From Massalongia carnosa (Eukaryota), in NCBI GenBank assembly GCA_965645245.1, contig OZ287067.1, forward strand, positions 1,302,001 to 1,366,000: 64,000 nt of DNA. Direction: 5' to 3'. Positions 54,655 to 59,054 of the stretch are shown here, piece by piece. A program made the position numbers and the translations under genes. Each line of letters opens with the position of its first letter. Positions within the stretch are counted from its first letter, which is position 1. The notes below the pieces were generated by a model. It made no database searches, was not told where the DNA came from, and saw only the letters and a list, made by a program, of their open reading frames with translations.

Positions 54655-55387
54655 TATGCTATCCGTTGGAGCTTAGGTCGAAGAAGTATATCGTGTTAAG
54701 TGTGGTTGTAGGTGGGTATCAAATCTTTAGTTTTACTTTAACTGGTGGCTATCTTGATCACATATGAATCAATGCATGAAGTATATTGGTTGTTTGTCTG
54801 GCGGACTGCAAGCTAAAGCTCATGTTAATGGGCTAACGTAAGACCATCCGTGCCACCCACATCGCTCGGTTCGACTCGCTTAGTGCTAGCCAGCCATACA
54901 ATCCAAAATGCTACTCCTCTACATACATCGGGGTTTTTTTCAACAATTCCTTCAGTACTACCTCCCATTTTTTGATGCTATTCATACTTTTGATCATTTT
55001 CAACTTTCGATGAGCTTTGATTTGTTTAGCCATCTTGTTCAGAGTCAAAGAATATCGCTTTTTTCATGCGATCATTCGATTCTTCTTCCTCTGAACCTCC
55101 TGATACTGTCTATCACGGGACCTTATTGTCTTGGTGGTTGTACGTATCCCACATAGCCACATAGGCCAGTCTTACGTTCAACGAACGCATACTAGGCCTA
55201 CCATATTACACGTTCAGTTTCATTGATACATTTTACTTCGATCAGTTATTTTTTGTTTGATGAATCGTTATTTAGATTTTTCGATTTTTTGATGGATTGA
55301 TTATACAATCATTAAACTTCCATCTACGGTTGCCGTAGGTGGACCATTAAGGTTTAGCTCGGTCGCACAGACTAGCTCGTGTGTTGC

Positions 55388-55630
55388 CACGCGGTGCGAA
55401 AAAAAGTTGACACACCAAAACTCGTCAGTACGCATAAAACTACACAACTATCAAAGCTTCAACATAATATAGAAAATCAACACCAGATGGACCAGTAAAA
55501 CAGACTTGATAGAGTAATAGAGTTATGTTTTCAAATTCACCTTAACTTTTTTGAAATGTATTACTTAACGATGTAGCCTATCATAATTATTTTATATTTT
55601 TGGTGTGTCAACTATTTTTCGCACCGCGTG
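55388..55630. mobile_element. 243-bp MITE with CACGCGG termini
   Basis: 33-bp TIR CACGCGGTGCGAAAAAWAGTTGACACACCAAAA; 5-bp TSD GTTGC at 55383-87 and 55631-35. Confidence 0.92.
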
Positions 55631-55858
55631 GTTGCCTCTTCCGCCCTGCTGCGGTCTAACCGCATTGGGCTTAGTATGCCATTCAGGACGCATCACGCGG
55701 CTGACTGGACACCAAAATTTTCACCCCACCAAAATCTACCCCTTATTTTCACTTTGCTACGTATAGTTACCATGCAATCAAATCAATAATCAATAACTAG
55801 TCATCTTGCCTTCACCTCGAATCACCGCCTCTAGTCGATCGGGCATACTAGCTACTTT

Positions 55859-56059
55859 TGTAAAGGTAATCATCATAAGGGTGTGTAAAAGGATGTTCAT
55901 TGAGATATACGAGCAAGCTCGTCTATATACAGCTAATCTATACTAGTCCCAATCTGGACCTGCTCCTATCATGGAAGGACCACCCGCTTAAGCCGGGCTT
56001 ATCACGGCGATAAGCAAGTGTTAGAGTACGAAAGCATGCTATGTTATATTATCGTGACA
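55859..56059. mobile_element. Solo LTR, 201 bp
   Basis: TGT...ACA termini, 5-bp TSD ACTTT; removal restores host frame FINEKV-ASMPDRLEAVI. Confidence 0.85.
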
Positions 56060-56691
56060 ACTTTCTCATTGATAAAACCCTGAGAAACGTGGCTCCAACC
56101 CTCATAAATCAGCCCTTTTGTGGTCTCATCGTCCCAATGGGGATATTTGTAGAGCTCCTGCTTGACCGGCTGCCAGCAATTTTCAATGGGCGATAAATCA
56201 GGAGATGAAGGGCAGTTAAAATAATGTTCGAGCCCATGCTCCTCCTTCCAAGTGCGTACGATGTTTGATTTGCCTGGCCCATGCCCTGAATCACCATCTT
56301 CCTCCAACACGAAATTATGCCCCTGATCAAGCCACGGTTTGACTATAGGATCTAAAATTTGATCGATATAAACCCGTTGACTCATTTTTCCATTCTTATT
56401 GCCCGAGACGTCGTAAAAATGAATGAAAGACTTGAAATCGTGCCCTGCGGCCACCCAACAATGATGCCTTTTTTTTATTCTTCTCGTCCGGCATGTGCTC
56501 CTCTTGTATGCAATCTTGACAGTATCGTTCGCCCGGCTTGCGAATGATTCGTAGCTTGCCTTGTGAACCCCATCCAAAATGAACTTCATCACTAAATCTG
56601 ACTCGATACCAGTCCTCCTTTTCAGGATATTTATTCAACATGAATGTGGCCCATTCAACTCTTTTAGCTGCTGTTCGCTCATTGACCCAGC

Positions 56692-58030
56692 CACGCGGGT
56701 GAAAAAAAAAGGTCAAGGTGAGCCAAAATTCCCCCACCAAAACTTACCTTTTTCTTCCCCTTTTTCTTCCCCATCTTCTTCCCCATTCAACATCTCAATT
56801 CGTATGACCATTGAAATTCTACATACATTCTATTCAATAGCCAGTCATCGCCCCCTCAGCCCTAATTACCTCTTCCAATCGTTTGGGCATTGATCGAACT
56901 CTTTCATTGATGAATTCCTGCGTCACCCGTTCCCATCCGTCCCTAATCAGCTGCTTCAAGCTGACATCGTCCCAATGAGGATACTTTCGAACATGCTGCT
57001 TCGCTGGCTGCCAGCAATTTTCTATAGGGGACAAACCAGGTGATGAGGCACAATTGAAATAATGCTCTAAATGATGATCTTCCTTCCATTTCTTGACGGC
57101 ATTTCTTGGCTTGCCCGTGCCATGACCAGAGTCTCCATCTTCTTCAAGTACGAAGTCATCCCCACGCTCCAGCCAGGGCTTGACGACGGGGTCAAGAACG
57201 GATTCAATATACACCTGATGAGTCATTTTACCGTTGCCCGGCACGTCATAAAAGATAATATCCGACTTGAAATTGTAGCCAATTGCAGCCCAGCAATGTT
57301 TTCGTTTTCGATCTTTCTCAGGAGGCGGGTCACGATGCTGTATGCAATCCCAACGATATCGTGTTCCGGGCTGACGAATAATTCGTAACTGTCCTTCCGG
57401 CCCATATCCAAAATGAATCTTATCACTAAATCGTACGCGATCCCATTGCTCCGGTTTGGGATATCTGGTCAGCATCATGTGAGCAAATTCGACCCGTCTT
57501 TCCATAGGTGGGTCGGCCAGCCATCCCTTGACGCAGGCCAGACATTTCTCATAGTTTAGAGCAGCCGACATAACATTGTGCATTGTACGATCGACAACGT
57601 CGGCCCCAATCTCCATAGCCAATTTTTCCCATGTGTATCGTTTTCCTTCCAATTGTAGCCCCTCATCTTGTAGAATGTGATCTGCCTCCTGTATTTGTGC
57701 TTCCGTGACTTTTGATTTGCGACCACGTGTCTCAACGAGCGTTGAATGATGTCTTCTTCTAGAAGATGCTCCGTTTCGAATGATCTTATAGCCCTGTCTC
57801 TCGCTTCGAACGCCAAAATGCTGAAAAATCTCTCGAGGATCGATGGAAATGCCTTTTGCAAGAAGAAATTCATAAGCTCCCTGTACCTTGGCCTTTTGAG
57901 GTGTATCGTAGTGGGATGGCATTTGAAATGTTGAATGAGGAAGAAGATGGGGAAGAAAAAGGGGAAGAAAAGGGGTAAGTTTTGGTGGGGGAGTTTCGGC
58001 TCACCTTGCCCTTTTTTTTTCACCCGCGTG
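56692..58030 (-). mobile_element. 1339-bp Tc1-like (DD38E) transposon with CACGCGG termini and 5-bp TSD
   Basis: About 95-bp TIRs starting CACGCGGGTGAAAAAAAA; CCAGC duplicated at 56687-91 and 58031-35. Confidence 0.95.
56834..57922 (-). CDS. IS630/Tc1/mariner-type DDE transposase, 362 aa, uninterrupted ORF
   Basis: N-terminal HTH and GRK motif, RVRFSD, LEEDGDSGHG, SPGLSPIENCW, SMPKRLEEVIRAEGAMTGY. Confidence 0.93.
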   Translation of the reverse strand: MPSHYDTPQKAKVQGAYEFLLAKGISIDPREIFQHFGVRSERQGYKIIRNGASSRRRHHSTLVETRGRKSKVTEAQIQEADHILQDEGLQLEGKRYTWEKLAMEIGADVVDRTMHNVMSAALNYEKCLACVKGWLADPPMERRVEFAHMMLTRYPKPEQWDRVRFSDKIHFGYGPEGQLRIIRQPGTRYRWDCIQHRDPPPEKDRKRKHCWAAIGYNFKSDIIFYDVPGNGKMTHQVYIESVLDPVVKPWLERGDDFVLEEDGDSGHGTGKPRNAVKKWKEDHHLEHYFNCASSPGLSPIENCWQPAKQHVRKYPHWDDVSLKQLIRDGWERVTQEFINERVRSMPKRLEEVIRAEGAMTGY

Positions 58031-59054
58031 CCAGCCCTTCTTACAAGACACGCACTTATGATAATCCATTGTCCCCATTGCTCTTTGTATCGTACGGCCA
58101 CTGCAATCCAGCCCAACTTCGTAGCCTAGCTGCTGCCACGTTAAAGAGCGAGCTTCAATGCCTTCTTCTTCTAAAATTCGTTCCATCTCTCGAATTTTGA
58201 CGGAAGAAATCAGGGATTTTCTTCCTCTAGTCTCCTTGTGATCAGGATTATTGTGTAGTTGGCGAGAGAAGAGTCCTCATTTCGAAGCATTTCATAGCCA
58301 CGTGTGCGACTAACGTTGAATGTTCGAAAAACCTCCTCCTTATAGTACGGTAATTTCATACGATCGGCGAAATGAACCGCTGCCCGAACTGATGCCTTGG
58401 TGGGAGTAGAATAATGAGCTAATAGAGCTCGAGTTTCAATGTTTGAAGTATGTGGGCGTGAGTCATCCATGATTGAGATGTTGAAGATGGGGAGAAAAGG
58501 GTAGATTTTGGTGGGGTGAGAATTTTGGTGTCCCGGTTTTTTTGTCAGCCGGGTGGCATATAGGAAATCTCTGCAAGCAAGCAATGCTTTTCTCTTCGTG
58601 TTCGTCTTGTCTAGCTATCATGTAGCATATTTCATAATAAAGCACTGTTCACCACATGGATAGGACCTCTGCCTACATACCGTGACAATTCGATTTCATC
58701 AAAATTTTACTGATCTTGAGAATTTATGTGTCACGGTCTGTAGGCAGAGGTCCTATCCATGTGGTGAACAGTGCTTTATTATGAAGTATGCTACATGATA
58801 GCTAGACAAGACGAACACGAAGAGAAAAGCATTTGCTTGCTTGCAGAGATTTCCTATATGCCTTCTGAATGGCATCCTAAGCCCAATGCGGTTAGACCGC
58901 AGCAGGGTGGAAGAGGCAGCACACGAGCTGGTCCGTGCGACCGAGCTAAACCTTAATGGTAGATGGAAGTTCAGTGAAACCTTCTGATGTTCAGTTTACA
59001 CCATGACATTATGTCATCTCTTTGTATTTTGTAAAGTGAGTTATTAGCAACTTC

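Follow-up and report, generated by a model that had tools for sequence, protein, structure and literature searches.

The window analysed here, a stretch of 64 000 nucleotides of the Massalongia carnosa contig OZ287067.1, contains a 1339 bp transposon (element A, window positions 56692–58030) that is flanked by a 5 bp target site duplication (TSD), CCAGC, rather than by a duplicated TA. The 5 bp non-TA duplication at element A is real, the same duplication is found family-wide, and the transposase belongs to the IS630/Tc1/mariner (ITm) superfamily. We put at roughly 85 % the probability that element A is a member of a Tc1-like (DD37E/DD38E) cut-and-paste family that is widespread in the Pezizomycotina and makes 5 bp non-TA duplications. 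The features of element A are as follows.

56687..56691, no strand: left TSD copy, CCAGC, read from the sequence and present as a single copy, with no element, in contigs of the runs X1, X3 and X6
56692..56798, forward strand: terminal inverted repeat (TIR) bordering the 3′ end of the gene, with CACGCGGGTGAAAAAAAAAG as its first letters; 108 columns aligned, 93.5 % to the opposite end
56834..57922, reverse strand: transposase open reading frame (ORF), 362 aa, with catalytic D167, D262 and E301 (DD38E), from the ORF read, Pfam, alignments and a model
57923..58030, reverse strand: TIR bordering the 5′ end of the gene, with ...CACCCGCGTG as its last letters on the forward strand, from the inverted-repeat comparison
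58031..58035, no strand: right TSD copy, CCAGC, from the sequence read, the contigs of the X runs and frame restoration

The ends of element A start CACGCGG, and CACGCGGGTGAAAAAAAA is present exactly at both of them; with up to three mismatches allowed, the window has 3 matches, where 100 shuffles gave an expectation of 0.08. On both sides, the C of CAC marks the limit of the inverted repeat, which measures 81–97 nt ungapped or about 107 nt when gapped, so the TIRs of about 95 bp starting CACGCGG described in an earlier note on this DNA begin where that note placed them but are slightly longer. They surround a single transposase gene, the arrangement of an ITm element of about 1.3–2.4 kb. The uninterrupted 362 aa ORF with ITm motifs that had been reported is present on the reverse strand, and includes FSDK, LEEDGDSGH and SPGLSPIEN. 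The left TIR has a CACCAAAA motif in subterminal position, at nt 44. CCAGC was read directly on both sides, as had been claimed, and no TA is present at either junction. Further CACGCGG sites in the window (13100, 30196, 23437, 44367 and 60544) have neither a partner end nor an A-run and were set aside as chance occurrences.

Empty sites were sought in the Logan contigs of public runs other than the one in which the element is best represented, namely X1 (labelled lichen metagenome), X3 and X6. Position 56686 was joined directly to position 58031 in one contig of X1, two of X3 and one of X6. These joints omit 1344 bases, corresponding to the 1339 bp element and a further 5 bp, and six letters fit either side. 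Element A lies within an older, degenerate member of the same family (host element B), and it follows from the joints that copies of B without element A exist and hold one CCAGC. Removal of element A and one CCAGC in silico gave a continuous frame, CKKGW|VNER, that reads on through the junction and lies in one tblastn segment (residues 51–207), whereas the frame of B shifts if both copies of CCAGC are kept. The restored host frame proposed in the earlier note was thus recovered.

Element A was also seen at about 99 % identity (56785–57981) in X1, X3 and X6, runs that are labelled as different organisms and as lichen metagenome; a 1203 nt contig of X1 differs by 13 letters and 6 gap letters. 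Similarity this high points to recent activity, closely related hosts or horizontal spread.

Two further members of the family lie in the window next to or around element A.

55388..55630, no strand: non-coding miniature inverted-repeat transposable element (MITE), 243 bp, with CACGCGG ends and GTTGC at 55383–55387 and 55631–55635
55694..58555, reverse strand: host element B, with ends CACGCGGCTGAC and CACCCGGCTGAC and 4 bp GCAT flanks

After removal of element A and of a solo long terminal repeat (LTR), B is 1312 bp long, and a tblastn search with the protein of element A matched it at 35–67 % identity in three frame segments. A second, uninterrupted copy of the surrounding sequence (58700–58960) aligns across the insertion points of both the MITE and B and serves as their empty site. 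For the MITE, this paralogous arm has a single pentamer (GCTGC) and no MITE, and the alignment gap is exactly 5. Three joints in other contigs, from 55361 to 55631 or 55632 with 3–4 other letters and from 55377 to 55631 with unidentified letters between, are not at the ends of the MITE and were not used as empty sites.

The whole nest of MITE, B, LTR and element A occupies a single arm of a long inverted repeat (or foldback), in which 55300–55693 plus 58556–58700 are matched by the reverse complement of 58700–58960. At about 55318–55334, the left arm is longer than the right by 17 bases, which include a short palindrome CTACGG..CCGTAG and could represent either the footprint of an excision or a small insertion. 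The LTR-like insertion within B (TG...CA, 201 bp, 55859–56059) is flanked by ACTTT. In contigs of X1, X3 and X6, 55853 is followed directly by 56060, with 206 bases (201 + 5) omitted and five letters that fit both sides, and removing the LTR restores a single frame for residues 205–362 of B.

The transposase was assigned using several comparisons. DDE_3 was the sole Pfam family matched by the window protein at an E-value of ≤1 (31.6 bits against a cut-off of 28.6). A search of a collection of 5.8 billion proteins found 254 relatives at E≤0.001 among 1521 candidates scored; those with names belong to Dothideomycetes, Leotiomycetes and Orbiliomycetes, and NCBI or UniRef list several as ‘Tc1-like transposase DDE domain-containing protein’. 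The ESM Atlas again gave ‘Tc1-like / DDE_3’, with no link to impala. An alignment (A1) was made of the window protein and 29 relatives, picked from the 120 listed for full length and spread. All 30 rows of A1 matched DDE_3, and 29 of the 30 matched nearly the whole of the NCBIfam IS630 model, yet below its curated cut-off. The PDB sequence search returned the catalytic domain of Sleeping Beauty (5cr4, E-value 8e-9) as the sole significant match of three listed. In an AlphaFold model built on A1 (mean predicted local distance difference test score 79.2, predicted template modelling (TM) score 0.59), the top Foldseek matches, among 18 at E≤0.001, were Mos1 and Sleeping Beauty (TM-score 0.76–0.77 on the target, root-mean-square deviation 3.6–3.7) and SETMAR.

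The bipartite N-terminal helix-turn-helix (HTH) region expected of ITm transposases was found in the relatives, with HTH_Tnp_Tc3_2 matching 16 of the 30 rows of A1. No HTH domain was matched by Pfam at E≤1 in the window copy itself, although helices are modelled there at 7–49 and 74–122. Alignment with Sleeping Beauty identified D262 as the second catalytic Asp, with E301 38 residues further on. The window copy is therefore DD38E, as had been noted, but that label does not extend to the family, as the intervening loop is one residue shorter in most of the relatives in A1, making them DD37E.

The earlier note had proposed tabulating TIRs and TSDs across homologues, and this was done on metagenome loci. 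One scan of Joint Genome Institute (JGI) metagenome contigs with A1 gave 589 candidate stretches, of which 356 were confirmed, and the best 80 loci were kept. An inverted repeat was found around the gene in 48 of the 80. The ends were then placed by a rule blind to the flanks, requiring a C[AT] start 11–13 nt before the A-run and agreement between the two ends in at least 6 of the first 8 bases. The rule failed for 12 of the 48 loci (L009, L011, L012, L014, L015, L018, L026, L049, L050, L054, L071 and L074). Duplicates (L010, L044 and L059; L011 and L050 are also duplicates), two loci with ends that differ (L027 and L032) and two with a flank that is too short (L028 and L046) were dropped. The remaining 29 non-redundant loci and the three insertions from the window (element A, the MITE and B) made up 32 scored insertions, and expected counts were obtained from non-self flank pairs. 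The numbers of insertions with an exact repeat of each length were as follows.

1 bp: 14 of 32, expected 11.74
2 bp: 3 of 32, expected 3.97
3 bp: 2 of 32, expected 0.48
4 bp: 1 of 32, expected 0.13
5 bp: 21 of 32, expected 0.16
6 bp: 1 of 32, expected 0.00
7 bp: 1 of 32, expected 0.00

TA was present on both sides in none of the 32 scored insertions. The claim that this element duplicates 5 bp instead of TA is therefore borne out by the empty sites of element A and the MITE and by the exact 5 bp repeats at 21 of the 32 scored insertions. Insertion into TA with duplication of TA, which characterizes ITm elements, was not found among these insertions, and for this reason the family is filed here as a variant of ITm and not as an ordinary member. 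In an independent scan for pairs of end motifs, 27 pairs were recovered, all already known, and a 5 bp repeat was found in 18 of the 26 that had both flanks. The related elements are 1254–1803 bp long. Identity to the window protein among the loci with 5 bp duplications ranged from 55 % (L002 and L005) down to 39–40 % (L057 and L053). A tree was built from element A and the 18 of the 80 loci that had stop-free matches of at least 300 aa. In this tree, 5 of the 16 inner branches were unresolved, and loci with 5 bp duplications fell on both sides of the midpoint; it shows the spread of the trait, not the direction of change.

The loci that were dropped or failed the rule were also read by eye. 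CCTCC is present on both sides of L032, and the flanks of L071 share 4 of 5 bases, while no repeat was seen at L027, L009/L011 or L074. The ends of L012, L014, L015, L026, L049/L050 and L054 are truncated or unrecognizable, and L018, L028 and L046 run off their contigs.

Several observations weigh against a uniform 5 bp duplication across the family, or against the way it was established. An exact 5 bp repeat is missing in 11 of the 32 scored insertions. There are 3–4 mismatches in the 5 bp flanks of L001, L024, L036, L038, L040 and L047 and one mismatch in those of L075, and in L004 the pentamer is displaced by one base. L030 has 6 bp by the end rule but 4 bp by the inverted repeat, and L023 has a 7 bp repeat, CCCAGGT (668–2024). 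The end rule was written after the data had been seen and fixes positions 1–2 and the A-run. Short-read metagenome contigs may join the flanks of different copies, and many of the loci were sampled in the same few related series, which makes them separate insertions rather than independent lineages. The empty sites of element A lie inside B and may be paralogous copies of B, not the ancestral allele, although the length of the duplication is the same in either case. The window copy carries a change adjoining catalytic D167 (E168K), another near E301 (D296G) and a two-residue deletion. All of the duplications were read from sequences alone. Aligned with the empty arm, B shows a gap of 4 and is flanked by GCAT on both sides, and either a 4 bp duplication was made at insertion or one base was lost later. 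Thus, where the earlier note counted three insertions in this window, element A (CCAGC) and the MITE (GTTGC) are clean 5 bp cases and B is ambiguous.

A subfamily with CAAGGCCTGGCCAAAAAAAG ends includes L023, with its 7 bp repeat, as well as L036 and L040, which have no repeat, and L028, which extends past the end of its contig. It is possible that this group behaves differently from the rest of the family or that the short contigs from soil are chimeras.

These irregularities bear on two ways in which a fixed 5 bp duplication could be mistaken. The duplications might be variable, between 4 and 7 bp, with 5 bp merely the commonest length, as in some other DDE families. The 4 bp of B, the 7 bp of L023 and the 4 or 6 bp of L030, depending on where its ends are placed, are what would be expected if this were so, but repeats of 4, 6 and 7 bp were found once each against 21 of 5 bp. 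B is also old and degenerate, and loss of one base is enough to explain its 4 bp. We consider a variable stagger improbable. That element A belongs to an ordinary TA-duplicating Tc1 family with misplaced ends, or that the 5 bp repeats arose by chance, is scarcely credible. Placing the ends of an old copy is difficult, and 3 of the 32 insertions share a 2 bp repeat, but that number is at the level of the controls and TA was never found on both sides. On each side of element A the inverted repeat goes no further than the C of CAC, and the contigs without the element omit exactly 1339 + 5 bases, which refutes misplaced ends or chance for element A.

The ends and the duplication length raise the separate question of whether the element belongs outside ITm. 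Transib elements encode a RAG1-like transposase, and CAC termini with 5 bp duplications are their signature; the family of element A has both of these features. The likeness to Transib drawn from the ends and duplications therefore stands, but it does not extend to the protein, which is DDE_3/IS630-like, and no RAG1-type domain was found in the window protein by Pfam at E≤1. Membership in Transib or another non-ITm superfamily was ruled out by the Pfam result together with the best matches to Sleeping Beauty in the PDB sequence search, to the IS630 model and to Mos1 and Sleeping Beauty among folds, leaving it with a negligible probability. Transib is reported to be absent from fungi (Muszewska et al., PMC5751038). 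The identification of the protein as IS630/Tc1/mariner made in the earlier note is upheld by the same evidence.

An alignment of 72 ends gave the consensus C-A-[A/C]-G-C-G-G-T-[T/G]-G-A-C-A7-G, in which positions 1–2 and 13–16 are partly fixed by the end rule. A CACCAAAA-like motif is found at nt 26 or nt 43–54 in many ends, including those of element A, B and the MITE in the window and of, for example, L002, L008, L013, L021, L030 and L041. From its subterminal location, it is a candidate transposase-binding site. The target profile was compiled from the 21 exact 5 bp duplications. Position 1 was C in 13, G in 5 and A in 3, position 2 was C in 13 and T in 5, position 3 was mixed, position 4 was G in 13, and position 5 was C in 10 and G in 10. 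The pentamers are 73 % G+C and correspond roughly to S-C-N-G-S. Outside the pentamer, A is favoured at −1 and T at +7.

The window copy differs from P0001, a 97 % identical protein from another assembly, by E168K (FSDE to FSDK), by D296G (SPDL to SPGL) and by the absence of the ‘NS’ of PGNSNGKM after G229. E168, D296 and the Asn of ‘NS’ are at least 90 % conserved in A1. In contigs of X1, X3 and X6 covering positions 57421 and 57036, the letters are almost without exception C and T, where the window has T and C, and these would return K168 to E and G296 to D. Six extra letters are present behind 57232 in X1. With three private changes at conserved positions, the window copy is probably weakened or dead, consistent with the earlier suggestion that FSDK and SPGL may impair it. 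As judged from their sequences, sister copies elsewhere keep the consensus residues and the family is not impaired; intact matches (stop-free, at least 300 aa) were found in 18 of the 80 metagenome loci.

The closest named group appears, by host, size and DD37E spacing, to be impala/mimp of Fusarium oxysporum. Impala is about 1.3 kb, and both impala and mimp duplicate TA. The family of element A is likewise fungal, with elements of about 1.3 kb, a single transposase ORF, derived MITEs and DD37E spacing in most relatives, but it differs in duplicating 5 bp and no TA; the two are likened here by their descriptions. With Tc1/Sleeping Beauty (DD34E) and Mos1, it shares the catalytic fold, DDE_3, the Tc3-type HTH and C-terminal helices, and the ends of those elements also begin CA. 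It differs from Tc1/Sleeping Beauty in an Asp–Glu spacing of 37–38 rather than 34, in DGDSGH rather than DNDPKH and in duplicating 5 bp rather than TA. Tc4/Tc5 duplicate TNA and Zator duplicates 3 bp, and these give precedent for a change of stagger in ITm-type enzymes. However, the duplications of Tc4/Tc5, which keep T..A, and of Zator are both 3 bp, whereas here they are 5 bp and GC-rich, with outer positions without T/A. The 3 bp duplication of Zator is not the one found in this family, where exact repeats of 3 bp were seen in only 2 of the 32 insertions as opposed to 21 with 5 bp. Zator is treated as an ITm superfamily in PMC7386202.

Impala is given as DD37E in PMC7325037, and Intruder (DD38E) is placed as a sibling of DD34E/Tc1 in PMC7731502. 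By its description, Intruder matches the window copy in its spacing of 38 residues, but its hosts are animals. As most relatives are DD37E, the fungal impala group is pointed to more than the animal DD38E Intruder, and because the spacing varies from 37 to 38 inside the family of element A, the number on its own is not evidence of kinship.

A search of the full-text literature, with Repbase, Dfam, most subscription journals and supplements outside its scope, found no description of a Tc1-like lineage or element with a 5 bp duplication. Nor was one found in the available parts of PMC5751038, PMC3864998, PMC10085805, PMC13004909, PMC9977792, PMC11544213, PMC7325037, PMC13728883, PMC5579170, PMC8934666, PMC2851567, PMC2817418 and PMC7181583. 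The reviews and surveys of ITm that were consulted give TA as the shared target across the superfamily (PMC7325037). The family may nonetheless already be catalogued with its 5 bp duplications noted, for example, among the Mariner/Tc1 entries in Repbase or Dfam or in a subscription paper. It is large, with 254 relatives of which some are named Tc1-like, and curators of fungal repeat libraries have almost certainly met it. Set against the literature, we doubt that its duplications have been recorded, though the idea is far from unreasonable. The earlier note had called this an apparently undescribed fungal ITm lineage with altered target capture; the ITm assignment and the 5 bp duplication hold, while for ‘undescribed’ the sole evidence is the negative result from the full-text literature. 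We lean slightly towards the view that this is an undescribed, Pezizomycotina-wide, impala-like Tc1 clade in which the stagger has gone from 2 to 5 bp and the target from TA to a GC-rich, roughly palindromic S-C-N-G-S.

An ITm transposase binds the inverted ends, cleaves both strands and transfers the 3′ ends into a TA target with a 2 bp stagger. The 2 bp stagger of Mos1 and Sleeping Beauty accompanies sharp bending of the target and flipping of the TA adenines, and in Mos1 both target adenines are flipped out and held (PMC8934666). By analogy, the transposase of element A's family would most likely bind the CAMGCGG...ACAAAAAAAG inverted ends via its N-terminal Tc3-type HTH region and then excise the element. 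Both 3′ ends would be joined to target strands staggered by 5 bp, not 2 bp, with S-C-N-G-S pentamers preferred as the target, and gap repair would then produce the 5 bp non-TA duplication. We infer that the chemistry would be the same as in the ITm relatives and that the 5 bp stagger would be intrinsic to the enzyme.

The motif that starts at the second catalytic Asp may have a role in stagger or target choice. It is D-G-D-S-G-H here and D-N-D-P-K-H in Sleeping Beauty, and P247 and K248 of Sleeping Beauty align with S265, which is invariant in A1, and G266, which is at least 90 % conserved there. P247 and K248 follow the second catalytic Asp of Sleeping Beauty in third and fourth place and are modelled close to the target DNA, and most substitutions at P247/K248, including almost all at K248, abolish transposition (PMC8934666).

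Definitions, searches and classifications of Tc1/mariner elements rely on the TA duplication, and annotation pipelines commonly require it, so a large fungal lineage with 5 bp GC-rich duplications would be mis-filed or missed. A close structural relative with a 5 bp stagger also raises the question of which parts of the enzyme set the active-site spacing and the base preference, and as many relatives have intact ORFs, the question of the stagger can be tested at the bench. If our reading is correct, the family would be a natural experiment on how the ITm transpososome sets stagger and target choice, in which the S-G replacing the P-K of Sleeping Beauty after the second catalytic Asp would be a candidate determinant. 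It might then also yield a compact transposon tool that inserts at GC-rich sites instead of at TA.

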